A DNA stretch of 32,000 bases from Candidatus Heimdallarchaeota archaeon B3_Heim. Lineage in GTDB: Archaea > Asgardarchaeota > Heimdallarchaeia > Hodarchaeales > Hodarchaeaceae. The notes beneath the pieces were generated by a model that saw only the letters and a list, made by a program, of their open reading frames with translations, did not search any database and had not been told where the DNA came from. Positions 4,376-28,679 of the stretch are shown one piece after another. Where the stretch lies: NCBI GenBank assembly GCA_003144275.1, contig NJBF01000007.1, positions 30,001 to 62,000 on the forward strand. The letters are read 5' to 3'. The number at the start of each line of letters is the position of its first letter. The first letter of the stretch is position 1. The translations under genes were made by a program, and so were the position numbers.

Positions 4376-4441
4376 GACAAGAAGTGCAAAAGTTCACTCA
4401 TTCAATTATTTCCAAACCAAGAATGCCTGATGACATAATTA

Positions 4442-4645: not shown

Positions 4646-4684
4646 CGCCAAAAAAATACCCCACAAATATGTTTGGAAAAAACC

Positions 4685-5581: not shown

Positions 5582-5709
5582 TATTGTCAACCTTTTTCGT
5601 AAGAATTAATGATCAGAAAATTGACCAAAGCATGAACAGAATGAATTTGTTGAGCCTTAATCAAAATTATTTAAAATTCTTCATTTTTCTTGGGTGTTTA
5701 CCCCGATTA

Positions 5710-9696: not shown

Positions 9697-9767
9697 ATTA
9701 AGATCCACTCCTATAAAGACTCTGAGGAAAGGTAACTATTGGAAGATGAAATAGAGGTTTATTAGGG

Positions 9768-10904: not shown

Positions 10905-11285
10905 ATGATGTCTGAAAGCACCATTCAATGTCCCTGTGGCCGAACAATCCATGATTATTCGGACTATTCTCTTCTGTATTTGAAAAAAGAATTTGGTGAA
11001 GGAGGAGAGATCGATATTCTATGTAAAAATGATTATTGCTATTTGAGAGAGCTAGGGTACTTGAAATTTAGTATTGACAAAGCCAAAAAAGTTATTTTAG
11101 AAAAAGGTAAATTCTATGCCCCATATGTGACATGGAACGCGACAAGAATGTCCGAAGATAGGACTGTTGAAATTCTCAAACAGCATCTAGTTGATATTAC
11201 AGAAAAGCTAGTTCAATGGCAGAAAGTTATGAAAAGTACAGATGAAGAAAAGGTACAATCAATTTCTGAGGAAGTAATTACGTGA
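10905..11285 (+). CDS. Hypothetical protein with four cysteines (CPC...CxxxxC), putative Zn-binding
   Basis: QCPCGR...ILCKNDYCYLRELG. Its stop overlaps the next start (GTGA at 11282-11285), indicating translational coupling. Confidence 0.7.
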   Translation: MMSESTIQCPCGRTIHDYSDYSLLYLKKEFGEGGEIDILCKNDYCYLRELGYLKFSIDKAKKVILEKGKFYAPYVTWNATRMSEDRTVEILKQHLVDITEKLVQWQKVMKSTDEEKVQSISEEVIT

Positions 11286-11884
11286 GCTTAGATTTACCAG
11301 AACCCAAATTTTCAATCTCTGAGGTTTTTTATTTATCTTATTCAAATATTAAAAGACGATTTTTCCGTTCTGTTATAACAGCCTTAGGAATTATACTAGG
11401 AATCGCATTTATGGCTGCATTATTAACAAATTCACTTATTTTAGATTGGTTACAGACTGGATCAGGTGTAGAAGCATATCAATATTGGTTAGTAGGGATT
11501 TCATTAATAGTTGCTTTTGGAGGAATAACCAACTCAATGCTGATGGCTGTTAACGAAAGAGTAAAAGAAATTGGGGTTTACAAATGTATTGGAGGATTAG
11601 ATAGTCACATTGTTCGGTTATTTATAGTAGAAGCCTTACTTTTAGGAATATTGGGAGGTTTCCTTGGAGGAATTATCGGCATAGGAATGGGAATTGGAAT
11701 TAATTTAAATCGAGCTTCATTACAGGAGTTATCCGTCCTCCTAGAGTCGAATATCACCTCTCTGATATTGCTTTTATTGGCTTGTATTGTCCTTGCAATA
11801 GTATTAACTTCACTCGCTACATTCATTCCTGCTCGTAGAGCTTCTAAACTATCACCAGCGGAAGCTTTAAGATACGAAAACTAG
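11282..11884 (+). CDS. Minimal FtsX/MacB-type ABC permease (4 TM, no extracytoplasmic domain)
   Basis: NIKRRFFRSVITALGIILGIAF (MacB TM1 motif), NSMLMAVNERVKEIGVYKCIG...FIVEALLLGILGG (FtsX coupling motif), C-terminal PARRASKLSPAEALRYE. Confidence 0.88.
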   Translation: MSLDLPEPKFSISEVFYLSYSNIKRRFFRSVITALGIILGIAFMAALLTNSLILDWLQTGSGVEAYQYWLVGISLIVAFGGITNSMLMAVNERVKEIGVYKCIGGLDSHIVRLFIVEALLLGILGGFLGGIIGIGMGIGINLNRASLQELSVLLESNITSLILLLLACIVLAIVLTSLATFIPARRASKLSPAEALRYEN

Positions 11885-11899
11885 TATGGCGGTTAATTT

Positions 11900-12622
11900 A
11901 TGAGTTTAGAAGAATTCGTCGTTGAAATAGATGATGTATACAAGGAATATACTTTAGGAAAGGTTATAATCCATGCTCTTCAGGGAGTTTCATTTAAGAT
12001 CAAACGAGAGGAATATGTTTCTATAATGGGTCCATCTGGATCGGGAAAAAGTACCATTTTCAATGCTATTGGTGGTTTAGATACAGTTACTAGTGGCGAA
12101 ATTTACATAGACCAAGTAGACATAGCTGAATTGGATGCCTATGAATTAGCATGGTTGAGGAATCGGAAAATTGGATATATCTTTCAGACATTTAACTTAC
12201 TACTTGCCTTTTCTGCACAGGAAAATATTGAAATTCCAATGGTATTTGCTGGTGTTCCAAGAGAGGATAGAAAGAAGAAATCAAAAGAAATTTTAAAAAT
12301 GGTGGGCTTAGAAGATCGAGCTAAGAATAAGCCAGGTCAGTTATCGGGGGGACAGCAACAGCGAGTGGCAATAGCTCGAGCTCTAGCCAATGATCCTGCA
12401 ATCATACTAGCAGATGAACCGACTGCGAACCTCGATTTAGCAACAGGATTGGAAATAATCGGGTTGCTCAAAAGGCTCAACGAAGAACAAGGAACGACAA
12501 TTGTGTCTGCTACACATGATCTGAAAATGATTAGCATTAGTGACAGAATTATCTGGATTCGAGATGGAAAAGTAGATAGAATTGAAGACAGAGCTGATAT
12601 TCAAGTAGACGCAATGACGTAA
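11900..12622 (+). CDS. ABC ATP-binding protein, LolD/MacB/FtsE type (paralog 1)
   Basis: Walker A GPSGSGKST, Q-loop IFQTFNL, signature LSGGQQQR, Walker B IILADEPT, H-loop ATHD. Confidence 0.95.
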   Translation: MSLEEFVVEIDDVYKEYTLGKVIIHALQGVSFKIKREEYVSIMGPSGSGKSTIFNAIGGLDTVTSGEIYIDQVDIAELDAYELAWLRNRKIGYIFQTFNLLLAFSAQENIEIPMVFAGVPREDRKKKSKEILKMVGLEDRAKNKPGQLSGGQQQRVAIARALANDPAIILADEPTANLDLATGLEIIGLLKRLNEEQGTTIVSATHDLKMISISDRIIWIRDGKVDRIEDRADIQVDAMT

Positions 12623-12626
12623 TGGA

Positions 12627-13373
12627 GTGAAAAAGTTGTCAGAAGATATTACCATACAGATGGAGAATGTAGTAAAAACTTATCAACTGGGAAGTCAGGA
12701 AGTCAAGGCATTAAACGGAATTTCCCTTTCTATCCCACGCGGTGAGTTTCATGTTATCATGGGTCCATCTGGATCAGGAAAAACAACATTTCTCAATATG
12801 GTTGGTGCACTAGACGTTCCTTCGGAAGGTGAGGTCTACTTTGAGGGGGTTCCTCTTTCTAATCTGACTCAAAAACAACTAGCTTCCTTGAGAGCATATA
12901 AAATCGGATTTATCTTTCAAACATTTAATTTAGTACCAGTAATAACAGCCTTGGAGAATGTTACTCTACCATTAATATTTCAGAATTATCCTCGAGAAGA
13001 ACGAAGAAAAAGAGCAAAAGAAATATTAAAACGCGTTGGTTTAGAGGATCGAATGAACCACACACCAGATGAATTGTCTGGAGGACAACAACAGCGAGTC
13101 GCCATCGCTCGTGCACTTGCAGGGGAGCCAAGTCTTGTCTTAGCAGACGAACCAACTGGAAATCTAGATTTAAAAACAGGATTTTCCATAGTCGAATTAT
13201 TAAGAAAAATTTGTCATGAAACTGGTGTTACAGTGATAAATTCGACTCATGACTTGAAATTAATCGATATTGCTGATAAGATTTCGTGGTTACGAGACGG
13301 TGTTATAACAAGAACCCAAAAAAGAATTGATGTGTCGATATCTTCTGAAGATGTGACTATTCCTTCATATTAA
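12627..13373 (+). CDS. ABC ATP-binding protein, LolD/MacB/FtsE type (paralog 2)
   Basis: Walker [44 protein letters not shown] start 4 nt after the previous stop. Confidence 0.95.
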
Positions 13374-13669: not shown

Positions 13670-16096
13670 TTAAGGACATTTCTCGATTGGGGTAAGCACG
13701 ACATAGAAAATTTCTCCTTCATGTAGATCAAATTTTATTCCAGTATTCAGCTCTTTTTTTGAGAGAGTGAGGACATTTGTTCTCTTGACTCTGCTAAGTG
13801 TTTGAATCCTCATCTCATAGTTTTCATAATCTCTTGGATAAAAAGTGATCTGACAGTTAGTGTGTTCAACTAACGGATTATAAATAATGAAGTTTAGTTT
13901 CTTAGGAGGAAAAATGTCCATCAAAGGAAAATCGAAAAGATCTAGATTTAAAACCATTATATCAGGCTTGATACTTTTGGCTAATGCCTCAAACATTAAA
14001 TAAAGATATATTATTTCCCCTGCACCGTATATCTCCCTTCCCAAAGTGCCTGACCGTGCACCTTTTTTGGAATATTCCTGGGAAGCGGAAAAATGCGGGG
14101 GTGTTTCCAGCATCTCAAGATCTTCAAATGGAATATATGGACAAGGGGTGTTTCTTCTCGATGGATAAATAAATTCCTCTGATAAGACGTTTGAGAAAAA
14201 ATAGAAAGTATTAATCCTGATGAGATTCATGATTTTCATGGCACCTCTAGGCAAGATCTGAATTTTCTCTTCCTTTAAAGCTGTTTTCAAAAATATTAAC
14301 CATGGGAGGACTGATTCAATATTTTCTTTTACAGCAGGATATCGAATACCTATACATGCCATAGGCAATCCTAAATTAGATCGTTTACCCTTCCAATCAA
14401 ATGAATTGTCATTATACCAGTAAAACATTCTTAATTCATTAAATAAGAACTTCCTCGCTATTTCTAAGTATGTATAATCTTTTGAAATACTAGCAAGTTC
14501 AGCAAATCCTGACACAGCATAAGCTATCTCAAAAGGTTCCCAAAATAATGTGTCTGGAGAAAATTCGGCCAGTTTCTTCGCGCTTTTGATTGCTTCGTCA
14601 AGATATTGACTTTTTTGAAAGAGATGGTAAGCTTCGATTACAATATATAAATGGATGCCAAGGCAGGCGTAATTTTTTGCTTTTCGTTTCCAAATTATGT
14701 CCTGTTCACCCCTAGATCTCTTCAAGAGTATTTCTCTTTGTTCATCATCATCCAGAACTTCGTAAAGTGGTTTAAGAGTAAATGGATCATAAAAAGCAGT
14801 AATTTCATAATTATGCTTTTTAACGAACTCCATAGATTTTTTTACCATATTTCTAAACGTTTCGAGATAACTTTGACTATTGGAAAGCAAAGGGAAGAGT
14901 CGTACTACCCAACCTAACCTTAAAATAGGCTCAAAAAAGTACCACGAATCTCCAATTGAATATTCTGTTGCTTTAATTATAGTATGGCCTTTGTCAGGGT
15001 AATAATCTATATTATTATAAAAAAAATTTGAGGCAGGGTCAATAAAGTGATTTAAAGTCCTATACATTCGACGAACATGATTTTCTTGAGAATTACTAGG
15101 ATTTAGAGTTAAGTATAAGATCCAAGGCGGAAGAAGTGAGAGTAATGTCATTGTTTCAAATACATTTGATCTTCCTATTGCTTCTCTTCGTTGAAGTTCT
15201 GAGTCATCCATTACATAAGCATAATATTTAGGAGATTTTGGATCAACCCAACAATATTTTTCTTTCAAAAGATCATCAATGCATCCCTTAGAAAATTCTG
15301 TCCAATTTAACCCTTCTTTTGGATAGGGAACTTGTCCTGGAATTAATGAAAAACATCGAGTAATAAGATTCTCCATCAAATCCCATTGGTTTGGTTGTAC
15401 TTCACAGTATTCCTGTGTAATATAATAGTCAAACACTATTGTTGACCCTTTCGGAAATGTTATTGACGATTTAAGGGGAATCCTATGTATTAAACCAATT
15501 GTTCCACTTGAATGAACACCACATTCATAGATTGAAAATCGCTCTATGTTTTTTGGTGACATCCATTCCATTTTTGAAAAATTCATAAAGAAAAATGTTT
15601 GAACTTTTGATTCGGGATTCCAAACTGCCGCGGCTGGCATATCATTTGATTTCCACTCGTTAGTAGGAGGAGTATGTCGACTTGGCTGTTGAATAGTCAC
15701 CACATTTTTTGAAAGATGAATTTTCGGTATAAGATGGATTTTTATCTCAGGACCAGTTTTATAAAATGTATAATCTTTGTTGAATTTTATTTTAGTTGTA
15801 AAATGAATCCAAGGATGAATATTGTTCTGAGTTTCAATCTCTGTAGATATTGTAAATCCTACATCTCTTTTATTTTCAAGCTGGAGAAGTGAGTGATTTT
15901 TTTTTGCAGTACTGGGAAGAAAATCAGCTGCACAAATTGATATTCCATTTTCTAATGTTATGAGAGGTATTTTTGCACTTTCTTGCCATTTGTCTTTTAT
16001 TCTAAGCTGTAAGAATATTATAAAGTGGTTTTTTTCTTTTTTCAACAAAATTGACTGATGTTCCGTTACCAAAAACTTGTTTTGGATTGATTCCAT
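13670..16096 (-). CDS. Uncharacterised cytoplasmic protein, probable (alpha/alpha)-barrel glycoside-hydrolase-like; paralog of 30222..32000
   Basis: 808-aa ORF without signal peptide or TM. Helical repeat pattern (YHLFQKSQYLDEAIKSA; DYTYLEIARKFL). Shares DSWY, ExxEIA, KENIES, YIPxED and EIYGAGE blocks with the last ORF. The CDS is secure; the function is inferred. Confidence 0.75.
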   Translation of the reverse strand: MESIQNKFLVTEHQSILLKKEKNHFIIFLQLRIKDKWQESAKIPLITLENGISICAADFLPSTAKKNHSLLQLENKRDVGFTISTEIETQNNIHPWIHFTTKIKFNKDYTFYKTGPEIKIHLIPKIHLSKNVVTIQQPSRHTPPTNEWKSNDMPAAAVWNPESKVQTFFFMNFSKMEWMSPKNIERFSIYECGVHSSGTIGLIHRIPLKSSITFPKGSTIVFDYYITQEYCEVQPNQWDLMENLITRCFSLIPGQVPYPKEGLNWTEFSKGCIDDLLKEKYCWVDPKSPKYYAYVMDDSELQRREAIGRSNVFETMTLLSLLPPWILYLTLNPSNSQENHVRRMYRTLNHFIDPASNFFYNNIDYYPDKGHTIIKATEYSIGDSWYFFEPILRLGWVVRLFPLLSNSQSYLETFRNMVKKSMEFVKKHNYEITAFYDPFTLKPLYEVLDDDEQREILLKRSRGEQDIIWKRKAKNYACLGIHLYIVIEAYHLFQKSQYLDEAIKSAKKLAEFSPDTLFWEPFEIAYAVSGFAELASISKDYTYLEIARKFLFNELRMFYWYNDNSFDWKGKRSNLGLPMACIGIRYPAVKENIESVLPWLIFLKTALKEEKIQILPRGAMKIMNLIRINTFYFFSNVLSEEFIYPSRRNTPCPYIPFEDLEMLETPPHFSASQEYSKKGARSGTLGREIYGAGEIIYLYLMFEALAKSIKPDIMVLNLDLFDFPLMDIFPPKKLNFIIYNPLVEHTNCQITFYPRDYENYEMRIQTLSRVKRTNVLTLSKKELNTGIKFDLHEGEIFYVVLTPIEKCP

Positions 16097-16388: not shown

Positions 16389-18587
16389 GTGATTCAAATG
16401 AGTTCAGACGCTGAAAAAATAGAGAAATCAACTGAATTAGAGGAACTAGATCAACCTCAAACTGGATTAACAAAAAAATCGTTATTTATTGGATTAGTGA
16501 TCCTATTATTATGGGGACTAATGAGTATTTTTGCTGGTAACTTTGGAGAAGCTCCACATATTTTTATAGAGGAAATGAGTATCCTCTTCCCTTTCTTCCT
16601 GTTAATTTTCGGTCTTCAAGCTCTTGAAAGAGTACGAATAAGAGGTTTAAAACTAACCCGTCAAGAATTGACATTTATTTGGGGTTTATTAGTCGTTGGT
16701 ATTCCCATAACTAATTCTGGATTTCTTGCTGGAAGATTATTATTAAACGCCATGTATCCTCTACGGGGCGAATCACCTCCACCCTCGAATTTTGCACCAT
16801 TTTTCTGGGGACCTACGTCACCTGATGAGTATTATGCGGCGTTTGATGGCGGTGGTTTTCCTGATCTTGGTCAATGGTTACTACCACTTCTATTTTGGGC
16901 AATAACGTCTTTTGCTTGGGCTTTCATGTGTCTATTCTTAATACAAATCTTTAGAAAACCTTGGATTGATGTAGAAAGACTAGCTTTTCCACTTGCTCAG
17001 CCTGTTCAAGAACTTTTAGAAGCGCCACTAGCCAAGCCTCATGAAAGGAATAGGAGGTATACTTGGTTATCCTTTGGAGCTTTGCTAGGAATAATTTGGT
17101 CTTCATTTGAGTTTCTAAGAGTAGTTTATCCTGAATGGGGAGATATATTTGCAGATATCGATCTCTTAGGAATTAAACCAGGGAAGGCTTGGGCAGTGCG
17201 GATAGATTTCGGCCAGCTATTTGGTTTAAGTCAGTTTCTGCCTAATGCTTATCTTGAGTCACGGCCCGAACCAGTAATGATCGCTGTATTTCTTTTAGTA
17301 TCCTTAAATGTCCTGCTATCGTCAATAATTTTTTATTTACTATTTTGGGTGCTTATTCCGATATTTCAGACAGAAGCAGGTTTAATAGCGCCACCTACTG
17401 GGCCTCCTTGGGCATCACCTCCAGATATTGATTTAGGATTCGCAAAAGGTGGCGGAATGTCTCTCTTCACATTTGGTGAATGGGGAATCCTTTTTGGGTG
17501 CGCATTTTGGGCAATAATATTACAACGTCGGTATCTATGGAGAACAATAAAAGCAATCTGGGATCCCAGTGTTATAGATGAGTCAAACGAACCTATTCCT
17601 TATCGTGCGGCTTGGATTGGATTGTTCATCTGTTCTCTAATCTTCTTAATGGCTTTACTACTAAGTGGAGCACCTTTGATTGGTGGTATTTACGCCATCT
17701 TGTTCCTCCTGATAGCATATGTAGCAGGAGCAAGACTTAGAGCGGAAACAGCAGGTATGGGAATTGGTCACCCGGGATATGTTCATCTGCATGGCATGCA
17801 TTCAGTCCGAGTTCTCATAGGAACGGATAGTGATGGAAAACCGGTAGATCAACCTGGTTTCTATGTAACAGCGTTGTGGATACAATTCTTCCAGAGAGAT
17901 GCCGCTCCTGCTTCCCCTGCAATTTCAGCACTAGAGTCTTACAATATCGCTCGGATTACGAAGACACGAACTAGGGATATTTTCATTAGTCATTCTATTG
18001 GAGTAACCGCCATAATTATCTTATGTTTAACAGCTTGGCCTATTTTAACTTATTTCTATGGTCTGAGTAATGAATGGTCAGGAGAAGCAGGTCACTACTT
18101 CGATTATACTGAATCAGCTTATGAATTAGTAACTGGAGGTTTCTGGGATTTCACTAGCTATCGTGTTGATATTTGGGGACAGGCAATCTTAGGAATAGTT
18201 TTCGCAATCGGGTTAAACATTATTCGTCTAGGAAGCCCCTGGCTTCCTTTAAATCCAATCGCAGCTCCGATACTTCTAAGCCTTCGCGGTGGATATTGGT
18301 GGTTACCCATCTTAATAGCCTATATTCTCAAATATGGAGTAGTAAGAATTGGTGGTACACGAGCGTACACCACATTTCTATTACCTGCGGCTGTAGGATA
18401 TCTCTTAGGTACAGCTGGCATATGGGGTTTTTCACTGGTCTCTATTATGATTCCAGCAATCTTTCCGATGATAATATTTAATTCCTCAATGGAATTTATA
18501 TATTATAACGGTATAATCCTTTTGATTTGGATCGCTTCGATCTTAGGAGTAGCTTTCTTCTTCTTAAAAAGATTAATGCAGAGTTGA
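16389..18587 (+). CDS. Polytopic membrane protein, DUF6785/DUF6784-like, OPT-transporter-related (ATG 16398 possible)
   Basis: More than 14 hydrophobic segments. LTRQELTFIW; RKPWIDVERLAFPLAQPVQELL; C-terminal WLPLNPIAAP...IAYILKYGVVRIGGTRAY...LPAAVGYLLG, as I recall for DUF6785/6784 proteins. Confidence 0.78.
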   Translation: MIQMSSDAEKIEKSTELEELDQPQTGLTKKSLFIGLVILLLWGLMSIFAGNFGEAPHIFIEEMSILFPFFLLIFGLQALERVRIRGLKLTRQELTFIWGLLVVGIPITNSGFLAGRLLLNAMYPLRGESPPPSNFAPFFWGPTSPDEYYAAFDGGGFPDLGQWLLPLLFWAITSFAWAFMCLFLIQIFRKPWIDVERLAFPLAQPVQELLEAPLAKPHERNRRYTWLSFGALLGIIWSSFEFLRVVYPEWGDIFADIDLLGIKPGKAWAVRIDFGQLFGLSQFLPNAYLESRPEPVMIAVFLLVSLNVLLSSIIFYLLFWVLIPIFQTEAGLIAPPTGPPWASPPDIDLGFAKGGGMSLFTFGEWGILFGCAFWAIILQRRYLWRTIKAIWDPSVIDESNEPIPYRAAWIGLFICSLIFLMALLLSGAPLIGGIYAILFLLIAYVAGARLRAETAGMGIGHPGYVHLHGMHSVRVLIGTDSDGKPVDQPGFYVTALWIQFFQRDAAPASPAISALESYNIARITKTRTRDIFISHSIGVTAIIILCLTAWPILTYFYGLSNEWSGEAGHYFDYTESAYELVTGGFWDFTSYRVDIWGQAILGIVFAIGLNIIRLGSPWLPLNPIAAPILLSLRGGYWWLPILIAYILKYGVVRIGGTRAYTTFLLPAAVGYLLGTAGIWGFSLVSIMIPAIFPMIIFNSSMEFIYYNGIILLIWIASILGVAFFFLKRLMQS

Positions 18588-18641: not shown

Positions 18642-21600
18642 ATGATCTTGAAATTTGCCAGAATTTTATTCTTCTTTTTTTTCCTATTCTCCCTAGTAGC
18701 AAGCAATCATGTTTTCTTTGAGGATGGATATATTCAGGAAGATAGAGAAGAACAAATTGATAATCAAACAGAATTAGATATGTTTAACTCAATTTCTAAA
18801 ACAAACGAATTTCCAGGATATGAAGGATTAAGTGACCAAATCAATGAAACTTATTATGCAAATATACAAAGTCATATAACAAACTTCTCTACGTTTGATC
18901 AAAGTCGGTTTACTGGATATCCCGGGTATGAGTACGCAGCTAATTATATCCGAGATTTTTTTATCAGTCAAAACTTAGAGAATACTTCTTTCCTTACTTA
19001 TCCTCTTTTAGTTCCGATTGATAAAAACACTATGATTGAAGTGAATGGAAAAAATTTCACAGCACACACTCTCATGCCTAATTCACTCAATCCTAGCAAA
19101 ATTTCTTCAAATGGAACATCTGGTACCTTGATTTATGGAGGTACAGGTTCCTATTCTGATTTAAACGGTAAAAAGATTGAAGATGCGATTGTAGTACTTG
19201 AGTTTAATTCCTTGGGCAATTGGATAAATGTAGCGAGTCTAGGAGCGAGTGGAGTTGTTTTTCTACCTACTAACGACACAAATCGCTTTGAAGCTGAAGA
19301 AAAAGTTTTGGATATCCCACTTCACTTCCCAAGGCTCTATATTGAAAACCAAACGACTGCTACGACATTAAAAAACTTATCAATGCAAGGAGATCAACAA
19401 GTCACGATTTTTTCCAATATGGAATGGACTTCGATAGCTGCTAAGAATGTGATAGGATTATTACCTGGTAAAAGTGAAGATATTATTATTGTCTCGGCTT
19501 ATTTTGATTCAGCGTCAATAGTTCCATCTATCGCTCCTGGTGCAGATGAAGCTTGTGGCATTGCTACTATGTTAGAGTTTATTCGTATCATTAATGATAA
19601 TAATATCGTTCCTGAAAAAACAATTATGTTTTTAGCCCTTTCAGGACATAATCAACAGGCTGCTGGAGCAAGAAATTTCGTGGATCAGAATTATAGCTCC
19701 TTAAATTTAAACAAAGGGATAAAACTATTTCTTTCATTCGATCTTTCGACTACTAACGATAAAATAGCTATCAATCCATATGGTTACTTATACAAATTCC
19801 AACTCCAATATACCACAGGAAATCGACTTATTACGAAATTGAAAGATATTGCTGAAGATTTACTTCTCACTTACACAGATGAAATAATGAGTGAATCGGG
19901 CTATTCTTTTAATGTAAAATCTTATGTTACGAACAAAGAGTTTAGGGATATTGCCCCTATTAATTTTGTTGGTGATCATGAACCTTTCATTGCATCTAAT
20001 GTATTAGGATTATCATTATTTACGTCAGAGTCCCATCGCTTAAGATATAATACACCCACCGATTTATACACACAAATTTCCCCTAAGCAATATGATTATC
20101 TGAAAAATCAAGCAGTGTATACCATTTGTGCTTTAACTCAACTAATCATTGATGAAGAACTTAATCCAATTTTAGAAAACCTTGAAAACAAAAAATTCTC
20201 ATTAAAAGTTGCCACAAATGCTCATGTTGGTTACGGATATATTGAAGGGTTCGTAAAACAATATGATAAAACAAATGCATGGTTAATTAATGTTCCAAAC
20301 GCTCTTGTTAGAATCAGATCCTACAACAGTCGTGATAGTAGTTTTGGAGAATACTCTTACATTACCAGAGCGGATAAAACAGGTTATTACCAAATCCAAG
20401 GAGTTTCATCATCACAACCCGATTATCCCCTAGAATTTGTAGCTGAAGCATATTTATTTGATTCTGATGGAAATTTAATAAAAGCAATTGATCTCGGCAC
20501 GCAAGGCCAATATTTCAAAAATTCAAATGCACTTACAAAACGCAAAACAACTGTAAATCCCACTGTTTTTGATTGCAGCACGCTAGGGATCTTTGGAATT
20601 TACCACCCATTTACACAAGTCAGTGCTGCCCAAAACCTTGATTATAAGATCTTGGATCCGCAAACACGAAATCAGTTCTTCTCTTACGGATATACTGGCT
20701 CAAAAACCGTGAGTTTAGTATTCCTACAACCAGATGTTCCTTCTATTGCGGTAGGAGTATATAATGATGGAATACTAGGTGTATATGCTACAAATTCAGA
20801 TAATCAAACTTTACGAGGAAAAGGTTATACAATAGGACAGGGAGAGTATAAAAATCTTGGTTTCTCCTCATTTATTACCGCAAGAGATTTCCTATCAATT
20901 ACTCAGACGTATATCTCATTGTACAGTCAGTATAATATTTATGATGCTTTAGTTGAGCTTACATATCAAACTGCCTCTGAGTTGTTGAACACTGCAAACG
21001 TTTTGAAAACCAATTATCAATATTCGCAGTCGATTGCGACAATAATCGAATCACAGACATGGGCTTATGATTCTTTTAGACAAGCAAGAAAAGTTATACA
21101 GGATGGAACCACCACATCTATATTCTTTGCTGTTCTCCTAATACCATTTGCTTTTGCACTATCTGCATTATTATTTAATTTCGATAGCGGTATGAAACGA
21201 ATATTAGCTACTAGCGCAATCTATGCTGCTGGATTTGGATTTTTCTATTTAATCCATCCAGGAATGCACCTCTCAAAGAATATTGCTATGATAATATTAG
21301 GCGTAGTAGCGACAATATTTGTATTTCCAGCCCTATTCATGATTTATCAGGAGGGTTATGATTACCTCAAGAGTATACGTATCAAACAACTCGGATCACA
21401 TTTTGCTGACACTTCACGAACCTCGACTTTGTTAATAGCCATGAGTACAGGCATCTCAAGGATGAAAAAGCGAAAAGGAAGGACAGTCATTGCTTTATCA
21501 GGGATAGTTCTCATTACTTTTTCCTTAACTCTTTTCACATCTGCCACTACTCAAATTGCTACATATTCAAAAGGAGAAAGCCAAAATATTGACTATGATG

Positions 21601-23147
21601 GCATTTATATCAAGACAAAGGATTGGGAATATCCACTCCCAGAAGAAATAATCACTAATTTAAAAGTTAAATATGAAGACGATATTCAAATCGCATCACG
21701 ATGGTGGCTGTATCCACCCTCAGATTTATCAGCTTTCCCAAATGGTTATGTAAAAGTTGAGACTCCAGAGGGGGATAGGAAGTGGGAAGGTTCCGCAATA
21801 TTAGGTATGACAGCTGTTGAACAGAATTTTCATCCTATCGAGACATTGCTAATAGCTGGACGATGGTTTACAAGCACGAATAGTTCAGAATGTTCACTAG
21901 TTAATTATATCAGTGATAAATTAGATGTATCGATCAATGAAACAGTTTTTTGGGCTGGACAAGAATTTACGGTTGTTGGAATAATTGATTCTAATGGATT
22001 TGAAAGGCTCAAAGATTACGACGGCGAAAAAATGACTCCCAAAAACAATCATGCCCCAGCTCCAAACGTTCATATATTAGCAAATGATACTTTTATATTA
22101 CCTGCTTATACTGTCAAGTCTTTTGGAGGAACCCTTTCCTCTATTTCGATTACAGCAGCAAACCAATCTTTTCATGAACTTTTTTTATATGAGGAGATCG
22201 CTAGAACAATTTCCTCAACTTATGGCCGAAACTTGCAGGTTAGAGTAGGGTTTGATGATGAAGTAACGATTTTTAAACGACAGCTCCAAAGTCTTGGGCA
22301 GGGTTTAGGAGATCTCGGAATTCCACTATTAATAGCCGTCCTATTGATGATTAATACTTCAGTAAGTACTGTGTACGAGTCAAAAAAGGAAATAAATACA
22401 TTTACCTCATTAGGATTGGCACCAATTCATATTGCTGGTCTATTCTTAGCAGAATTTCTAGTTTATGCAATTCTTGGCTCTGTGATAGGATATCTAATGG
22501 GTATTACATCTGCTGTCATACTTTCGACTTTAGGAATTCTTCCCGATTCTTTAGCAATAAATTATTCGTCAGGATCAATAGTCTCTGCCTTAGGTTTAGG
22601 AATGGGTGGAATTCTCCTTAGTACAATATATCCACTAAGAATTTCAGCAAAAATGTCTGTTCCTTCTGTCCGACGATCATGGGAGTTAAAAACAACTTAT
22701 GAAGATGATGGTAAAACTTGGAATATTCCTCTTCCCTTTGTAGCTGCAACTGAACAGGAAGCAGAGGGGATCATTGAATTTTTAAGGGAATATTTCTTCA
22801 TTTTTGAATCAGAAAGTGTTGGAGGAGCATTTTTTGCGCAAAAGATTTCAACTAGTGAGACTGATCAAGAAAGAAAGGAAAAACATCTGACTGCAGTTGT
22901 TAACTTGGCACCTTTCGATGCAGGTCTGAAACAAAAGGTCGATATTTTCACCTACCTTGAGGAGATCAAATATCATTATGTTTTCGAAATTAATTTAGTA
23001 CGGCAAGAAGGAATTCTATTAGCTTGGGAATCTTCTGTTAGACGATTCGTTGATAGTATTAGAAAACAGTTATTAATCTGGCGAAGTCTTCCCAAAGAAG
23101 AAAAGGCACTTAAATCTGAGAAGTTCAGATCGAATTTACAACAATGA
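18642..23147 (+). CDS. Fusion protein: signal/anchor, PA domain, degenerate M28 peptidase domain, beta-sandwich domains, TM bundle, MacB-type ectodomain, FtsX permease, cytoplasmic tail
   Basis: AGGAG RBS at 18633-18637. PA: GTLIYGGTG...IVVLEFNS...LGASGVVF. M28-like: SAYFDS...PGADEACGIATMLE, LSGHNQQ, GDHEPF, YNTPTD. MacB TM1: MKKRKGRTVIALSGIV. FtsX: KKEINTFTSLGLAPIHIAGLFLAEFLVYAILG. About 15 N-x-S/T sequons. Confidence 0.85.
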   Translation: MILKFARILFFFFFLFSLVASNHVFFEDGYIQEDREEQIDNQTELDMFNSISKTNEFPGYEGLSDQINETYYANIQSHITNFSTFDQSRFTGYPGYEYAANYIRDFFISQNLENTSFLTYPLLVPIDKNTMIEVNGKNFTAHTLMPNSLNPSKISSNGTSGTLIYGGTGSYSDLNGKKIEDAIVVLEFNSLGNWINVASLGASGVVFLPTNDTNRFEAEEKVLDIPLHFPRLYIENQTTATTLKNLSMQGDQQVTIFSNMEWTSIAAKNVIGLLPGKSEDIIIVSAYFDSASIVPSIAPGADEACGIATMLEFIRIINDNNIVPEKTIMFLALSGHNQQAAGARNFVDQNYSSLNLNKGIKLFLSFDLSTTNDKIAINPYGYLYKFQLQYTTGNRLITKLKDIAEDLLLTYTDEIMSESGYSFNVKSYVTNKEFRDIAPINFVGDHEPFIASNVLGLSLFTSESHRLRYNTPTDLYTQISPKQYDYLKNQAVYTICALTQLIIDEELNPILENLENKKFSLKVATNAHVGYGYIEGFVKQYDKTNAWLINVPNALVRIRSYNSRDSSFGEYSYITRADKTGYYQIQGVSSSQPDYPLEFVAEAYLFDSDGNLIKAIDLGTQGQYFKNSNALTKRKTTVNPTVFDCSTLGIFGIYHPFTQVSAAQNLDYKILDPQTRNQFFSYGYTGSKTVSLVFLQPDVPSIAVGVYNDGILGVYATNSDNQTLRGKGYTIGQGEYKNLGFSSFITARDFLSITQTYISLYSQYNIYDALVELTYQTASELLNTANVLKTNYQYSQSIATIIESQTWAYDSFRQARKVIQDGTTTSIFFAVLLIPFAFALSALLFNFDSGMKRILATSAIYAAGFGFFYLIHPGMHLSKNIAMIILGVVATIFVFPALFMIYQEGYDYLKSIRIKQLGSHFADTSRTSTLLIAMSTGISRMKKRKGRTVIALSGIVLITFSLTLFTSATTQIATYSKGESQNIDYDGIYIKTKDWEYPLPEEIITNLKVKYEDDIQIASRWWLYPPSDLSAFPNGYVKVETPEGDRKWEGSAILGMTAVEQNFHPIETLLIAGRWFTSTNSSECSLVNYISDKLDVSINETVFWAGQEFTVVGIIDSNGFERLKDYDGEKMTPKNNHAPAPNVHILANDTFILPAYTVKSFGGTLSSISITAANQSFHELFLYEEIARTISSTYGRNLQVRVGFDDEVTIFKRQLQSLGQGLGDLGIPLLIAVLLMINTSVSTVYESKKEINTFTSLGLAPIHIAGLFLAEFLVYAILGSVIGYLMGITSAVILSTLGILPDSLAINYSSGSIVSALGLGMGGILLSTIYPLRISAKMSVPSVRRSWELKTTYEDDGKTWNIPLPFVAATEQEAEGIIEFLREYFFIFESESVGGAFFAQKISTSETDQERKEKHLTAVVNLAPFDAGLKQKVDIFTYLEEIKYHYVFEINLVRQEGILLAWESSVRRFVDSIRKQLLIWRSLPKEEKALKSEKFRSNLQQ

Positions 23148-23165: not shown

Positions 23166-25067
23166 ATGAGTGAAAATAGTGAAATCAAGGATGGGGTGAT
23201 AAAGACTGAAGGACCCAAAGAGAACTATCAAAGTGGATTTACATGGCGAGTTGGCCTAGCAATAGTTTATTCCGCTGTTATTATTCAACCCGCTGCAATC
23301 TACTTATATTTTGTAACTAATCAATGGTTTATCGGTGCTGTTCTAAATACAACCATTGTATTATTCGCTGTTTTTGCTAAATTAGCTGATAATCCTCTAA
23401 GCAAACAAGAAGTCTTCATGCTAATTAATGTTACGAGTACAGCACTTGGGATGGAAATGATTGTACTTTTAGTCTTTAATTATTATTTAAGACACCACCC
23501 TATTATTAGCTCTCAGATCATCAACGGTGTTCCACTCACAGCTTTGATACCTGATTGGTTCGCCCCTGCATATTTTGGCCCTCTTGAAACTTTACTAAAT
23601 CCAGTGTTTATCCTCCCGTTGGGTTTGTTAATAATCACTGCTCTTTTGGCCAAATCAACTGATATTTCCCTCGGAATTGTATTCAACTACTTATACACTA
23701 AAGTTGAAGTATTACCGTTTCCAACAGCTGAAGTTGAAGCCGAAAGAGCTAAAGCACTCACATGGGAGGATAAGAAGAAGTTACAAGTTTTTTCCATCAG
23801 TGCAATAATAGCAAGTTTTGCGGGGTTAATTCTCTACTTTTTCCCGTTAGTTTTTGATATCACTTTGATTCCCATTCCTTGGTTTGATTTCACGCCGTCT
23901 GTTGAAGGATTTTTGAATGGTGCAACATTTGGAATTGCAACAGACATTATTTTCTTTGTCACTGGATTTATTCTTCCTATGAGCGTTGTAGTGAGCATTC
24001 TAATAGGATCACTCTTCGTTAACTTTCTTGTGAATCCATTACTTGTTGCAAATAACATTGATATTGGATGGGAAAAAGGTATGTCACTTATAGATACATT
24101 TAATAACTCCCAGCTAAATTTCTGGCTTCCGTGGACAATTGGATTACTCTTGAGTTCTGCTTTAATTCCAATATTACGTAATCCTAAGATCTTTATAACC
24201 ACTATAAAGGATTTGAGAAAACTTTCAAGAGGAAAGGGAGAAGAGTTAGAAGGAGGGGCTCCAAAATTGAGTGTTTTGTTTGGATTTTTTGTATTGGGAA
24301 CTTTAGGTTCTGTAGCTGTCGCTTGGTTGTTTATTCCTGATCTTTCACAGCAAATGATTGTTATTCTTATAATACTAACTCTGGGTTGGAGTTTTCTGTC
24401 TTCTTTAACTATGGCATATGCTTTTGGGATAACAGCAAACCTTCCAGTTATACCGTACGTCAAAGAATCGGCTTTTGTGGCAGCTAATGCGCCCATTGGT
24501 GGCCAAATTTGGTTTATACCTTTAGTGATTTCACAAGGAGGAGCAGGATGGGTAGCTACTTTCAAAACAGCCGACTTAACTTATACCAAAAGAGGGAGCT
24601 TGATCAAAGCGCATTTCTTGGCCTCATTCGTTGCTTGGATAGCTGGTATCTTCTGGGTATCGGCCCTTCTTTCGATTGCTCAGGTTCCCTCTGTTATTTT
24701 TCCAGCTCCTTTTTGGCCATTAGAGGTTGGTAAAATAGCCACCTTTGTTACAAATCCAACTGCAGTCATTGATCCTCTTATTATCGGAATTGCTTTTATT
24801 ATCACACTCTTCTTATATTTTCTAGAGTGGGGAACAATACTCCCACTATCAGTTATTTCATTCTCTGTGGGAACTATAACAGTTATTCCTTATGCGTTTA
24901 CAACATTTTTAGGTGCCCTCTTTGCCCAAATTCTTAAAACTCGTATGGAGAACTGGAATACAAATCGAGCAGTTATTTTAGCTGGTGTAGGAGCAGGAGT
25001 CGGGATTGTAATTGCTCTGGCTACTTTCTTGTCCTTAATTAAAAATACAATTGCTTTGCCATTATAG
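23166..25067 (+). CDS. OPT (oligopeptide transporter) superfamily-like polytopic membrane protein
   Basis: SGFTWRVGLAIVYSAVIIQPAAIYL, LSKQEVFML, KVEVLPFPTAEVEAERAKAL, GFILPMSVV. About 15 TM segments. Follows the fusion gene after 18 nt. Confidence 0.78.
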   Translation: MSENSEIKDGVIKTEGPKENYQSGFTWRVGLAIVYSAVIIQPAAIYLYFVTNQWFIGAVLNTTIVLFAVFAKLADNPLSKQEVFMLINVTSTALGMEMIVLLVFNYYLRHHPIISSQIINGVPLTALIPDWFAPAYFGPLETLLNPVFILPLGLLIITALLAKSTDISLGIVFNYLYTKVEVLPFPTAEVEAERAKALTWEDKKKLQVFSISAIIASFAGLILYFFPLVFDITLIPIPWFDFTPSVEGFLNGATFGIATDIIFFVTGFILPMSVVVSILIGSLFVNFLVNPLLVANNIDIGWEKGMSLIDTFNNSQLNFWLPWTIGLLLSSALIPILRNPKIFITTIKDLRKLSRGKGEELEGGAPKLSVLFGFFVLGTLGSVAVAWLFIPDLSQQMIVILIILTLGWSFLSSLTMAYAFGITANLPVIPYVKESAFVAANAPIGGQIWFIPLVISQGGAGWVATFKTADLTYTKRGSLIKAHFLASFVAWIAGIFWVSALLSIAQVPSVIFPAPFWPLEVGKIATFVTNPTAVIDPLIIGIAFIITLFLYFLEWGTILPLSVISFSVGTITVIPYAFTTFLGALFAQILKTRMENWNTNRAVILAGVGAGVGIVIALATFLSLIKNTIALPL

Positions 25068-25185: not shown

Positions 25186-25866
25186 TTATAATCTGGCTTC
25201 AGTTTCTTTTGTAATTCTTTGTACGTTGATAGAAATATCTTCTAAAAGTTCGATGATTAGATCCAGTGTCTGAAAATATTTCTTTTTTGAAAAAATCACA
25301 TCAATAAATTTCTCAATACTTATATTCCAAATAAGTTCAGAGGGAGATTCGTATCTTTCTTTAAATTTGCGAGAATATTCGTCAAGATCTTTTGTAATAA
25401 TTGGTTGTGAGAAGAGCCGAACTGATAACTGATCTGGCACAATTTTGTGAATACATTGCAAAAGTGAGCTTTCTTGGTTTAAAATTTCAACTAATGATGA
25501 GTTTATGTATACATTCGTATTCTCATTCTGTAAATATTCAAGAAAAGGAGAGGAGTGGAACCGATAATTTTTCCTAACAAATCCTGTTCTTTCTAGCTCA
25601 CATTCATATCCCTTAAGGCGTTGAAAGAGAAGAATATTTTCAGAAGAGAAGTTTTCTTTATCAATTATTACTACTGAGGCTGTGAATTCCCAAGATTTAT
25701 CAGAAGAATATGAAAGTCGTTTGGATCTAACAAGTATCGAATTAAAATGGTAGCCTGATTTAGGAACTAAAATACTTGCCCCTAGATCGGAAATTTGCCA
25801 GTCCCCGTACTTGGACATGTACTTAGCAAAGGGAGCTAATAGGCCGTCACTGTAAGATTCAACCAT
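25186..25866 (-). CDS. Hypothetical soluble protein (226 aa)
   Basis: Non-overlapping ORF filling the gap between the OPT-like gene and 26039. No recognisable motif. Confidence 0.65.
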   Translation of the reverse strand: MVESYSDGLLAPFAKYMSKYGDWQISDLGASILVPKSGYHFNSILVRSKRLSYSSDKSWEFTASVVIIDKENFSSENILLFQRLKGYECELERTGFVRKNYRFHSSPFLEYLQNENTNVYINSSLVEILNQESSLLQCIHKIVPDQLSVRLFSQPIITKDLDEYSRKFKERYESPSELIWNISIEKFIDVIFSKKKYFQTLDLIIELLEDISINVQRITKETEARL

Positions 25867-26038: not shown

Positions 26039-28318
26039 ATGAAAAAATCGTTAAAATCCTTAATCTTTATTGTTTTAATAATGTCTCTTCTGACTCAAGT
26101 TAACATTGGCCAAAGTAGATCGAATTTCTCTCCAATAGCTGAAAAGAGAATAGTCAGTAAAACTGTTGCAACTGATGAGATGATCAAGGTAAACATTAAT
26201 GTGACTGCTCCCGGCACACATGATTTACCAGAATTTACAGTCATTATAATTAAATTGAACGAAATAGCCTCTAACCTACCAGTATCCATAGATTCTTTCG
26301 GTATGAATACACCTGAAAGCACAGATGATATTAAATGGAATGCTGCATATGTCACATATGAGGGTTCATTAATCCCGTCTCAAGTAGATGATGTCGATGG
26401 AATAACAGGATTTTCAGAAAATGATGAATTGCTATTTGCACTTCCAGAATCAGTCAATCTAGCTATAGGCCAGAGTGCTCAATTTATTGTCTACTTTAGC
26501 CTATTGGATTTGGATCTTCCTCCTCCATATTTTCCAGAAGTCTGCAGTCTCATTGTTTATCCAAAACTAAAGGCAATCGATGATCTTCATTCTGATATGA
26601 TTGACCCAAATGACGGGGCATATTACATTGGAAATGAGATCATACAAGGGGCAGTATTAATCGCAGCCGCATGGTCTTCGGGGACTATGTATGAATTGTC
26701 ACTTTTAGATGATCAAGGAGAGTCCCGATGGGATATAATTAAACAAAGAAGGGACCCCCCCCCCATTGATTCTCAGGTTTGGAAATGGTCTCGTTTTGCT
26801 CGATTTGAAGAGTTCACCTCGCAAAATCAATATGCTACTCGTCCCTATCCTGGAAAATTAGTCGAATTGATCCCTGGCCCTATTCGTGCCCGAATTACTG
26901 TACAAAGTACCCAACCCTACGTAAAAGGTGTATTTGGAGGACCAACGACACAAATAGATATATTTGGCTTATTCACGTATGATGTCTATGTTAATCAACC
27001 CTATCTTGACTATTCACTAGACATTACAGGCCCCAGCGCTGGTAGTATCGACGATCTTTCTCTTGAATTCCAAAACCGAGAATGGGGTGGTGGAAGACCT
27101 CAAACTCTTTATAAGGGAATATATATCCCAGGATATACCGAAGATATAGGCTATGGTGAAGGATGGGTTATGCGGGGCCCAGATGACACTGATATTCATA
27201 AAATTAATGCAAACATTTTTGATTCCCCGTGGTATCTCGAGGCATTATTGGAGGGCACAACAGTCATTCCTCCCTCATTAGCGGAACCAAATGACGACCA
27301 GCGTGGATATGGGTTCATTTTTGATGAGACTGGTTTCAGCAATCTTGAATGGAGTGCTTCAACTGAAGGTGTAAAGAACATGTATTCAGCAGCACAGTTT
27401 CCATTTAATACAAGATACCATCCATTCGATGGTGATATCCTTCAAGGGCAGGACAAAATTGAATTTATGGAAGATAAATATGACGAATATTTGAGACCTG
27501 ACCCCATATTCAGTTTTAATAGCTCTATCATCTCCATAACTGACATTCCTTTTGATTATCTTTTTGTTTCTTCACCCGATGTGGAACTTGACTTTGACAA
27601 TGCTTTATTGCAGGTAGAAAATATTACAGCTTTTGCCACTGATGTTGCTGAGTTTGTTACAAACCTTACTGCCACGAGTGCAACTTATAAAATTTTCAAC
27701 TTTAAAGAAAAGTCAGAAACGGAATTAACTGGTAGTTTAGTATGGGATCCTACTTCCCAAACATGGGGTATTCCAGAAATTGATGTCTCATCCTTGAACC
27801 TATACAGTTCTTACTTCATTTCAGCCACCTTTGAAACTTCCACACTTGCTGGAGAAAGTCCTCCATCCGCACGCTGGGGTGGTGGTATAGATGTTTTCCC
27901 CCCCATTATAGGTTCTGTTACCAGAAATCCTTCTGATATTGTTCGTAGTGGAGATAGGGTGAATATTAGTGCCTCAGTTGAAGACGATGAAGGTGAAGTC
28001 ACCTCTGTGATATTACTCTATAATCACAACGGTACATGGTATGATGTGCCAATGGACATGGCCTATGGATTATACAAAGCATCTATTCCTCCTCAAAAGC
28101 AGGGGACAACAGTTGAGTACAAAATCACTGCCTATGATGATGCTACCCCCGAAAATTTCAATACTTCAGAGGTTTACAGTTATACCGTTGCAGTAGAATA
28201 TTCCCCTGGACAGGGACTAGTGCCACTGTTTCTTGGAGGTGGAGTGCTAATTGCTGCTGTAATTCTAGCTCTAAAATCCGGAGCACTTCATAGATTGAAA
28301 TACGACGAAGTAGATTGA
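26039..28318 (+). CDS. Secreted surface protein with C-terminal TM anchor; beta-supersandwich/DUF4861-like N-part plus Ig-like domains
   Basis: GGTGA RBS at 26028-26032. Signal peptide MKKSLKSLIFIVLIMSLL. IPSQVDDVDG...DELLFALP and GPIRARITV motifs. Ig-like PPII...VNISASVEDD...VEYKITAYD. TM LVPLFLGGGVLIAAVILAL. About 8 sequons. Confidence 0.78.
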   Translation: MKKSLKSLIFIVLIMSLLTQVNIGQSRSNFSPIAEKRIVSKTVATDEMIKVNINVTAPGTHDLPEFTVIIIKLNEIASNLPVSIDSFGMNTPESTDDIKWNAAYVTYEGSLIPSQVDDVDGITGFSENDELLFALPESVNLAIGQSAQFIVYFSLLDLDLPPPYFPEVCSLIVYPKLKAIDDLHSDMIDPNDGAYYIGNEIIQGAVLIAAAWSSGTMYELSLLDDQGESRWDIIKQRRDPPPIDSQVWKWSRFARFEEFTSQNQYATRPYPGKLVELIPGPIRARITVQSTQPYVKGVFGGPTTQIDIFGLFTYDVYVNQPYLDYSLDITGPSAGSIDDLSLEFQNREWGGGRPQTLYKGIYIPGYTEDIGYGEGWVMRGPDDTDIHKINANIFDSPWYLEALLEGTTVIPPSLAEPNDDQRGYGFIFDETGFSNLEWSASTEGVKNMYSAAQFPFNTRYHPFDGDILQGQDKIEFMEDKYDEYLRPDPIFSFNSSIISITDIPFDYLFVSSPDVELDFDNALLQVENITAFATDVAEFVTNLTATSATYKIFNFKEKSETELTGSLVWDPTSQTWGIPEIDVSSLNLYSSYFISATFETSTLAGESPPSARWGGGIDVFPPIIGSVTRNPSDIVRSGDRVNISASVEDDEGEVTSVILLYNHNGTWYDVPMDMAYGLYKASIPPQKQGTTVEYKITAYDDATPENFNTSEVYSYTVAVEYSPGQGLVPLFLGGGVLIAAVILALKSGALHRLKYDEVD

Positions 28319-28320
28319 GA

Positions 28321-28353
28321 AGAAGAATCAGGGGACTGGCCTTCTTCTTTTTT
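28321..28353 (+). terminator. Hairpin plus T-run terminator
   Basis: AGAAGAA-t-CAG-ggga-CTG-gcc-TTCTTCT followed by TTTTT, immediately after the stop at 28318. Confidence 0.45.
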
Positions 28354-28504
28354 CCTTATTTTTAATAAAACTGGTTGTAATCTTAAATCAATCAAGTGAA
28401 ATTCAAATCTATCGCAAGTTCTCCTCTTCAAGAATAAACGTTTTTTTTTATTATTCTTGGGGGAAAAACGGTCAAATGGGGACAATAAGATAATAATTTT
28501 TCCA

Positions 28505-28528
28505 ACCCATATGATTCACCCATATGAT
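28505..28528. repeat. 11-bp direct repeat ACCCATATGAT x2 (13-bp period)
   Basis: Copies at 28505-28515 and 28518-28528, each containing the palindrome CATATG, about 150 nt upstream of the PGF-CTERM gene. Confidence 0.5.
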
Positions 28529-28590
28529 GATGAAAAAAAGAAGAATATTGGAGTTATACTTAAAAAAGATAAAAAATGATTGAGTCTGTT

Positions 28591-28622
28591 AATAGAAAAC
28601 ACGTTTGTGTGTTATTTCTATT
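28591..28622. promoter_or_regulatory. Imperfect inverted repeat upstream of the PGF-CTERM gene
   Basis: AATAGAAAACAC-gtttgt-GTGT(ta)TTTCTATT: 12 complementary pairs with a 2-nt bulge. Confidence 0.3.
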
Positions 28623-28679
28623 CTTTAGAGGAAAATATTTCGAATTCTAAAGCTATCAAGAAACTGATTGGTTTTTAAA

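Follow-up and report, generated by a model that had tools for sequence, protein, structure and literature searches.

What does a peptidase-like domain that has exchanged its metal ligands do when it is built into a transporter permease? The question is raised by a gene from Candidatus Heimdallarchaeota archaeon B3_Heim, situated in the 32,000-nucleotide stretch analysed here (contig NJBF01000007.1, positions 30,001 to 62,000; G+C about 36%), to which we refer as the window. Close relatives of the window are metagenome-assembled genomes (MAGs) labelled Hodarchaeales, Hodarchaeota or Heimdallarchaeota, i.e. Asgard archaea. The gene product, P0001, joins a head of PA and M28 aminopeptidase type to the membrane module of a type VII ATP-binding cassette (ABC) transporter. 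Since the catalytic glutamate and the Zn1 site are lost and the aminopeptidase fold is kept, we favour, at roughly even chances, the reading that the head serves a type VII ABC machine, itself coupled to OPT-like channels, as a capture or gating module and does so without catalysis.

The layout of P0001 was derived from Pfam, a hydropathy scan and two AlphaFold2 models, which cover residues 27-826 (predicted local distance difference test, pLDDT, 91) and residues 815-1501 (pLDDT 83). Transmembrane helices are abbreviated TM and the periplasmic core domain PCD.

18642..23147, plus strand: whole gene, PA/M28-like pseudo-peptidase and MacB/FtsX-type permease (P0001; open reading frame of 1,501 residues)
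18642..18719, plus strand: hydrophobic N-terminal segment, residues 1-26, signal peptide or membrane anchor (hydropathy scan)
18810..20165, plus strand: M28 catalytic-type core, residues 57-120 and 263-508 (Pfam, structure alignment, Foldseek)
19002-19427, plus strand: PA-type insert within the M28 core, residues ~121-262 (spanned by BSAP, transferrin receptor and GCPII alignments)
20166..21119, plus strand: all-beta region, residues 509-740, then three-helix stalk into the membrane, residues 741-826 (AlphaFold2 secondary structure)
21120..21356, plus strand: three extra TM helices, residues ~827-905, returning the chain to the cytoplasm (hydropathy, AlphaFold2 model)
21483..22661, plus strand: type VII ABC permease module, with TM1 (residues 948-968), MacB-type PCD (969-1222) and TM2-4 (1223-1340) (Pfam, Foldseek)
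22662..23147, plus strand: conserved cytoplasmic C-terminal alpha/beta domain of no known family, residues 1341-1501 (AlphaFold2 secondary structure)

A basic cytoplasmic linker lies between the extra helices and TM1. By the predicted topology, which corresponds to that of MacB, the two large domains face the exterior and the FtsX module begins and ends in the cytoplasm. An earlier note on this DNA had counted about four extra TM helices; hydropathy and the model leave three (residues ~827-905), together with the N-terminal signal or anchor segment. Even at E up to 1, Pfam returned nothing for residues 60-270, 509-830 and 1341-1501. P0001 carries 17 N-x-S/T sequons. Ten occur in residues 1-350, and most of the 17 belong to domains predicted to lie outside, a set consistent with an N-glycosylated surface protein.

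The head belongs to the M28 family both by sequence and by fold. Pfam Peptidase_M28 matches residues 269-490 (E 8.6e-18), and aminopeptidase 1amp aligns with the head model (VIA-align) at Z 29.2 and a root-mean-square deviation of 2.5 Å over 268 of 291 residues. BSAP, transferrin receptor and GCPII align over 383-410 residues, PA-type insert included, which bears out the PA+M28 fold already suspected by comparison with such receptors. In Foldseek, PaAP and 2ek8 match the head model at ~1e-23. Active PA+M28 aminopeptidases (Aneurinibacillus 2ek8, Bacillus BSAP/YwaD, Pseudomonas PaAP) and Vibrio 1amp are indeed the best matches in sequence and structure and share the domain order; they are, however, soluble secreted proteins with the full His-Asp-Glu-Asp-His set and the catalytic Glu, from which the P0001 head departs. 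The equivalent residues, taken from HMMER alignments to solved M28 enzymes and given in Vibrio/Aeromonas aminopeptidase numbering, are as follows.

19500..19502, plus strand: Tyr287 at the position of Zn2 ligand His97, lost (GGHLDS aligned to SAYFDS; AYFD starts at 19497)
19506..19508, plus strand: Asp289 at the Asp99 position (D in 220 of 220 relatives)
19545..19547, plus strand: Asp302, equivalent to bridging ligand Asp117, kept (GADDDAS aligned to GADEAC; GADEA starts at 19539)
19647..19652, plus strand: His336-Asn337 in place of catalytic Glu151 and Zn1 ligand Glu152 (AAEE aligned to SGHN; SGHNQQ starts at 19641)
19740..19742, plus strand: Asp367, equivalent to Zn2 ligand Asp179, kept (LQLDM aligned to LSFDLS)
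20049..20051, plus strand: Asn470 in place of the last Zn1 ligand, His256 of the YHT motif (wYHTPND of 2ek8 and BSAP aligned to YNTPTD; YNT starts at 20046)

The motif changes first read by eye (AYFD, HN within LSGHNQQ, YNT) are all present where they had been placed, and the alignments support their equivalences. DEA and GDHEPF, described at the same time as retained, are also there, but GDHEPF (starting at 19971) aligns with the non-ligand DHESF motif. The Zn1 set (Asp117/Glu152/His256) is incomplete, D302 being accompanied by N337 and N470, and so is the Zn2 set (His97/Asp117/Asp179), represented by Tyr287, D302 and D367. In place of the general-base Glu of M28 enzymes stands His336. Judged from its residues, the M28 domain of P0001 cannot be a canonical co-catalytic di-zinc aminopeptidase.

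Is this a peculiarity of one copy? A search over 5.8 billion proteins yielded 75 full-length relatives. Those from Hodarchaeales fall into two size classes, one of ~1,470-1,500 residues and one of ~1,250 residues without the MacB ectodomain; those from Thermoproteota and Nitrososphaerota have ~1,500 residues and ~28% identity. When 1.84 billion representatives were searched with a profile, 1,246 matched at E <=1e-30, and all of the best 150 of these have the P0001 architecture. Further members came from a scan of named genomes, namely from Bathyarchaeia, Brockarchaeota, Armatimonadota (among them MAGs labelled Fimbriimonas and Chthonomonas), Latescibacterota, Gemmatimonadaceae, Brocadiia, Poribacteria and Desulfobulbus. 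Residues were counted in 220 aligned family members from Asgard archaea, Bathyarchaeia, Brockarchaeota and several bacterial phyla.

Glu151 position (336): His in 194, Glu or Asp in 0
Glu152 position (337): Trp in 95, Asn in 55, His in 28, Tyr in 19
His256 position (470): Gly in 65, Asn in 62, Phe in 26, His in only 4
His97 position (287): His in 118, Tyr in 80
Asp99 position (289): Asp in all 220
Asp117 position (302): Asp in 120, Glu in 41
Asp179 position (367): Asp in 175

No member retains an intact Zn1 triad. A Zn2-type triad reads H-[DE]-[DE] in 86 members and Y-[DE]-[DE] in 53 (139 together) and is broken in the remaining 81. Within Hodarchaeales, residue 287 is either His or Tyr, and the short paralog encoded on contig C25 of the same genome shares the Y-D-H-N-D-N set. 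Named bacterial members, compared without the Gemmatimonadaceae locus L065, follow the substitution pattern of P0001. Across phyla the PA+M28 part is the best-conserved outer part of the protein, with 30-37% identity, the beta region, stalk and PCD reaching 15-22%. Five residues are fully invariant in the family, among them four with polar or aromatic side chains, namely D289 and, within the PA insert, N147, W194 and R231. K221 is conserved in 96%.

Because 220 archaeal and bacterial relatives show the same pattern, the frame being intact and the sequence strongly conserved, the M28 substitutions are old, maintained and under selection. Simple decay of a functionless peptidase domain has nothing in its favour beyond the ligand loss in P0001 itself and can be considered refuted: the earlier note had regarded substitutions unique to this copy as its mark, whereas an acidic residue at the catalytic position, like the Zn1 triad, is missing from every aligned relative. 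Of the four residues whose conservation the earlier note proposed to check, His336 recurs in 194 relatives, Tyr287 in 80, Asn337 in 55 and Asn470 in 62.

To what kind of transporter is this head attached? Pfam FtsX matches residues 1229-1339 (E 5.5e-11), and MacB_PCD matches residues 948-1119 with 24.6 bits, slightly below its cut-off of 27. Foldseek relates the C-terminal model to MacB (1.4e-11) and LolCDE (~1e-10), and the PCD resembles 3ftj, the MacB periplasmic domain (TM-score 0.63), and 5f9q (0.64), in agreement with the earlier assignment of the second ectodomain to the MacB type. Both hallmarks of type VII ABC permeases are present, a four-TM FtsX module and an extracytoplasmic core domain between TM1 and TM2; the short paralogs are devoid of this MacB-type core domain. 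Type VII ABC transporters work by mechanotransmission and have no known import pathway. Since the membrane module is of this class (MacB/LolCE/FtsX-type) and the head has an M28/PA and not a binding-protein fold, the proposal that the head replaces a solute-binding protein is unsupported in that form, and neither part has the fold of a type I or II binding-protein-dependent importer. The C-terminal tail (residues 1341-1501) shows 74% identity within Hodarchaeales and 30% across phyla; it gave no Pfam match, no usable match in the Atlas feature search and no Walker motifs, and it may dock cytoplasmic accessory proteins or ATPases.

The genes that flank P0001 encode two polytopic membrane proteins.

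16389..18587, plus strand: DUF6785/DUF6784 polytopic membrane protein, OPT-like partner (Pfam)
23166..25067, plus strand: 633-residue polytopic membrane protein, second OPT-like partner (Atlas structure; kept directly after the fusion gene)

Six long-form loci were read from end to end (the window, L001, L002, L009, L010 and L011). In each of them a DUF6785/DUF6784 protein and a polytopic protein of ~635 residues flank the fusion gene, their genes abutting or often overlapping it. In tblastn, one or both partners were detected in most longer loci of the named-genome scan. The 633-residue protein resembles Atlas structure clusters named OPT/peptide transporter (TM-score 0.79-0.88); some of these clusters have PF03169 in 15-31% of their members. 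Its own match to Pfam OPT (E 0.88, 8.6 bits) lies below the cut-off of 25.8, and a Thermoproteota ortholog has a weak precomputed OPT match. The DUF6785 family is homologous to the 633-residue family (hhalign 99.5%, E 1.7e-22, 601 columns), and both neighbours are like OPT/YSL transporters (PF03169) in size and polytopic topology. The two proteins, to which the earlier note had drawn no connection from the fusion gene, are the likely conduits. Known OPT proteins work alone on a proton gradient, whereas this pair is encoded beside an ABC module. Two neighbours of the short paralog in L003 (638 and 411 residues) proved to be unrelated to the OPT-like proteins.

Farther out, the window contains additional components that recur with the fusion gene.

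10905..13373, plus strand: 126-residue Cys-rich protein, PCD-less FtsX protein of 200 residues and two ABC ATPases of 240 and 248 residues (Pfam)
10905-11285, plus strand: the 126-residue Cys-rich protein, its gene running 4 bases into that of the small FtsX
8254-8718, plus strand: PqqD/RRE-like protein of 154 residues (Pfam PqqD)
8740-9708, minus strand: 322-residue cytoplasmic protein of an unnamed family (homologs in L020)
25186..25866, minus strand: 226-residue cytoplasmic protein recurring with the system (homologs in L001 and L020)

The best solved matches of both ATPases are MJ0796, LolD and MacB, which places them in the class that works with FtsX-type permeases, and their genes lie 5-6 kb upstream of the fusion gene. 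In each of the five related genomes where a 261-residue query detected homologs, the small FtsX gene shares its strand with the long form and precedes it by ~8 kb. A complex prediction for small FtsX with P0001 residues 815-1354 gave a median score of 0.29 (mark 0.32), which carries no weight either way on pairing. L020 (G127:C49:150001-170000), a divergent paralogous locus from a related genome, repeats ten components, i.e. the PqqD-like, 322-residue and 126-residue proteins, small FtsX, both ATPases, the fusion, the 226-residue protein, DUF6785 and OPT-like proteins; the fusion protein there has 1,652 residues and 26% identity to P0001. Compact gene orders with an adjacent ATPase gene occur in bacteria, namely small FtsX-ABC-fusion-DUF6785-OPT-like in Desulfobulbus (L095) and fusion-OPT-like-322-PqqD-small FtsX-ABC in Armatimonadota (L053). 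Relatives of the 322-residue protein were found in L053 and in Thermoproteota (L010); by tblastn, it appears together with the PqqD-like protein in L053 and in the Poribacteria loci L103 and L105.

The fusion occurs in three paralogous forms. L020 represents a third copy of the whole system, with a 940-residue DUF6785 protein and an extra FtsX protein of 991 residues without a detectable M28 domain. The short paralog of the genome studied here (contig C25:4437-8132; L006/L007) has 1,272 residues, 51% identity to P0001 and no MacB PCD. In L021, from a related genome, one array contains both the long and the short form, the latter immediately downstream of the PqqD-like gene. In L020, too, the PqqD-like gene directly precedes a short FtsX-fusion paralog.

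Several of these accessory proteins have features of their own. The PqqD-like protein recurs with the system in L020, L021, L010, L053 and L103, with no enzymes for ribosomally synthesized and post-translationally modified peptides nearby. The 322-residue family has invariant residues that include W11, W22, W119, C121 and H156, and in the Atlas it shows weak likeness (TM-score ~0.44) to PsbP/DcrB-type domains; a PDB profile search gave only weak hits to the eL43 zinc ribbon (E ~0.02), which were taken as noise. The 126-residue protein, kept in L001, L020 and L021 (52-64% identity), is a possible zinc ribbon, with at least four Cys spaced as CPC...C..C. Pfam, searched at E up to 1, returned only sub-threshold noise for this protein and nothing for the 226-residue one. 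In Hodarchaeales arrays the ATPase genes are separated from DUF6785 by the gene of an 808-residue cytoplasmic protein (13670-16096, minus strand; 51-55% identity in L001 and L021). Neither Pfam nor a PDB sequence search gave a match for this protein; a distant membrane-anchored paralog is encoded at 30222-31946, and weak relatives occur near the Thermoproteota cassettes L010 and L059. The region 26039-30077 encodes two surface proteins with C-terminal anchors, of 759 and 469 residues (the latter DUF4861-like), which are also found downstream of the cassette in L001 (46% and 35% identity).

How might these parts work together? P0001 would be the large, substrate-facing permease subunit of a multi-subunit envelope machine. 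Its PA+M28 head would capture or gate a ligand, probably the end of a peptide or glycopeptide, without hydrolysing it, and the stalk and three TM helices would tie the head to the MacB/FtsX-type module. LolD/MJ0796-class ATPases would move the FtsX module from the cytoplasm, the motion being passed to the head and PCD. The FtsX module is most likely a heterodimer with the small PCD-less FtsX protein, served by two unlike ATPases, and the two flanking OPT-like proteins would provide the membrane path.

Hints as to cargo come from the upstream part of the window.

1463-8157, upstream: GH38 alpha-mannosidase, GH130 beta-1,4-mannooligosaccharide phosphorylase and GH2 beta-mannosidase-like enzyme

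These proteins carry neither a signal nor TM or hydrophobic segments. Lacking any hydrophobic segment, they would be cytoplasmic, and their substrates must therefore be imported; the three would fit cytoplasmic breakdown of mannosides or of the N-glycan core. The window contains no classical sugar importer. Related enzymes lie near other archaeal cassettes, GH2 in L002, L046, L047, L049, L051 and L054, GH130 in L010, L021, L032, L033 and L039, and GH38 in L070, L092 and L096. In this archaeon the cargo is plausibly a mannose-containing glycan or glycopeptide that would be passed to the cytoplasmic GH38, GH130 and GH2 enzymes, a suggestion that extends at most to archaeal systems. A search of sequencing runs returned no RNA runs and small-share DNA in marine, cold-seep and sediment metagenomes, which has no bearing on expression or habitat.

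A more elaborate version may be put forward only tentatively and is, in our opinion, rather doubtful. It supposes a composite uptake machine distributed over Asgard and TACK archaea and several bacterial phyla, in which the dead-aminopeptidase receptor of an ATP-driven MacB-type mechanotransducer captures glycopeptides or oligomannosides outside the cell and the machine then gates an OPT-like heteromeric pair or loads it, the PqqD/RRE-like protein and three other cytoplasmic proteins receiving the cargo inside.

Several facts weigh against a capture or gating head that serves uptake. Known type VII systems mostly export or extract and do not import. In most Thermoproteota and Bathyarchaeia loci there is no ATPase gene within 10 kb, some Armatimonadota copies of the fusion gene lack OPT-like neighbours, and the glycosidase link appears in archaeal loci only, not in the bacterial loci read. 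Tyr/His287, Asp302, Asp367 and His336 could still hold one metal. Moreover, the title of Bzymek et al. 2005, as given in PMC3426542, describes the E151H form of the Aeromonas enzyme (PDB 2anp) as functional.

These last two points lead to an enzyme of altered chemistry, which would bind one metal at the former Zn2 site (Tyr/His287, Asp302, Asp367), use His336 as general base and process a surface substrate before OPT-like uptake. Such an enzyme would account for the invariance of Asp289 and for His336 in 88% of relatives, the H/Y-[DE]-[DE] triad is kept by the majority noted above, and both residues allowed at 287 in Hodarchaeales are able to bind metal. Animal glutaminyl cyclases, which have the same fold (Z ~28), work with one zinc. 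However, the triad is broken, by Lys, Gly, Asn, Ser and others, in the 81 members mentioned while His336 stays, so that a metal site is not a family-wide requirement, and the universal absence of the Zn1 triad is accompanied by a bulky Trp at position 337 in 95 relatives. We consider this enzyme unlikely. The head might instead lack any specific ligand and be a structural scaffold or steric gate that organises or shields the OPT-like subunits. It would then be comparable to two M28-like subunits, nicalin of the endoplasmic reticulum translocon complex and nicastrin of gamma-secretase. The family profile matches nicalin (E 2.7e-11) and transferrin receptor (1.1e-11) among solved chains, and the head is permanently fixed to a membrane complex. 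Yet the invariant N147, W194, R231 and D289, together with the nearly constant His336, exceed the needs of a scaffold, and the PA+M28 part is more conserved than the remaining ectodomain; a mere scaffold thus seems very improbable.

The direction of transport could also be the opposite one, with the PqqD/RRE-like protein handing a peptide to the ABC module and the dead head holding or releasing it outside. This would agree with the outward action of MacB, LolCDE and BceAB and with the recurrence of the PqqD-like protein in Asgard, Thermoproteota, Armatimonadota and Poribacteria loci. No conserved gene for a precursor peptide or a maturation enzyme was found in any locus read, though, the most constant partners are two OPT-like proteins, of a family known for uptake, and cytoplasmic glycosidases adjoin the archaeal loci. 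A peptide exporter or processor of this kind is quite unlikely, and we retain a capture or gating head coupled to OPT-like channels.

P0001 belongs to the type VII ABC permeases, represented by MacB of MacAB-TolC, LolCDE, FtsEX, HrtBA, YtrEF, YbbAP and BceAB, with which it shares the four-helix FtsX module and the core domain between TM1 and TM2. ATPases of the LolD/MJ0796/MacB class are encoded in the same conserved array, and two unlike permease genes are present, as with LolC and LolE, which are served by LolD. In contrast to known members, P0001 adds an 800-residue PA+M28 ectodomain, three extra TM helices and a 160-residue cytoplasmic tail, its candidate partner permease has no ectodomain at all, two OPT-like proteins are linked, and in many lineages the ATPase genes are not adjacent. 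The composite machine could be something more. FtsEX with EnvC, a degenerate LytM/M23 protein, likewise combines a MacB-type motor with a peptidase fold that has no metal ligands and does not hydrolyse; in P0001 the fold is M28 instead of M23 and fused in cis instead of bound, and no link to cell-wall amidases or division genes is seen. Transferrin receptor 1 (structure match Z ~28), nicastrin and nicalin are membrane proteins with PA+M28-type ectodomains that have lost their metal ligands. They are eukaryotic and single-pass, whereas P0001 is prokaryotic, polytopic and fused to an ABC permease, and it keeps two of five ligands and a conserved His at the general-base position. A specific kinship of the head to these receptors is not indicated, active bacterial aminopeptidases giving better scores.

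Relatives of P0001 are named 'M28 family peptidase' or 'FtsX-like permease' in databases, and a literature search found no paper on the M28-FtsX fusion, DUF6785 or the system. The window contributes an Asgard case with three paralogous forms, an ATPase pair and small FtsX gene in fixed synteny and a mannosidase neighbourhood. Type VII ABC systems are thought to work mechanically on separate partners; here the partner is fused in cis, is a pseudo-enzyme and is linked to OPT-like proteins. The family also offers a clean natural conversion of an M28 enzyme to a non-enzyme, parallel to transferrin receptor, nicastrin and nicalin. Some relatives come from the MAGs labelled Fimbriimonas and Chthonomonas, genera with cultured members, and experiments would thereby become feasible if a cultured strain has the gene. 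If the proposed model holds, it would represent a new coupling of ATP to a secondary-transporter fold and would give a function to DUF6785/DUF6784 and several unnamed families. It would also suggest a route of nutrient uptake, possibly of N-glycans or glycopeptides, in Hodarchaeales, which are regarded as the Asgard lineage nearest to eukaryotes.

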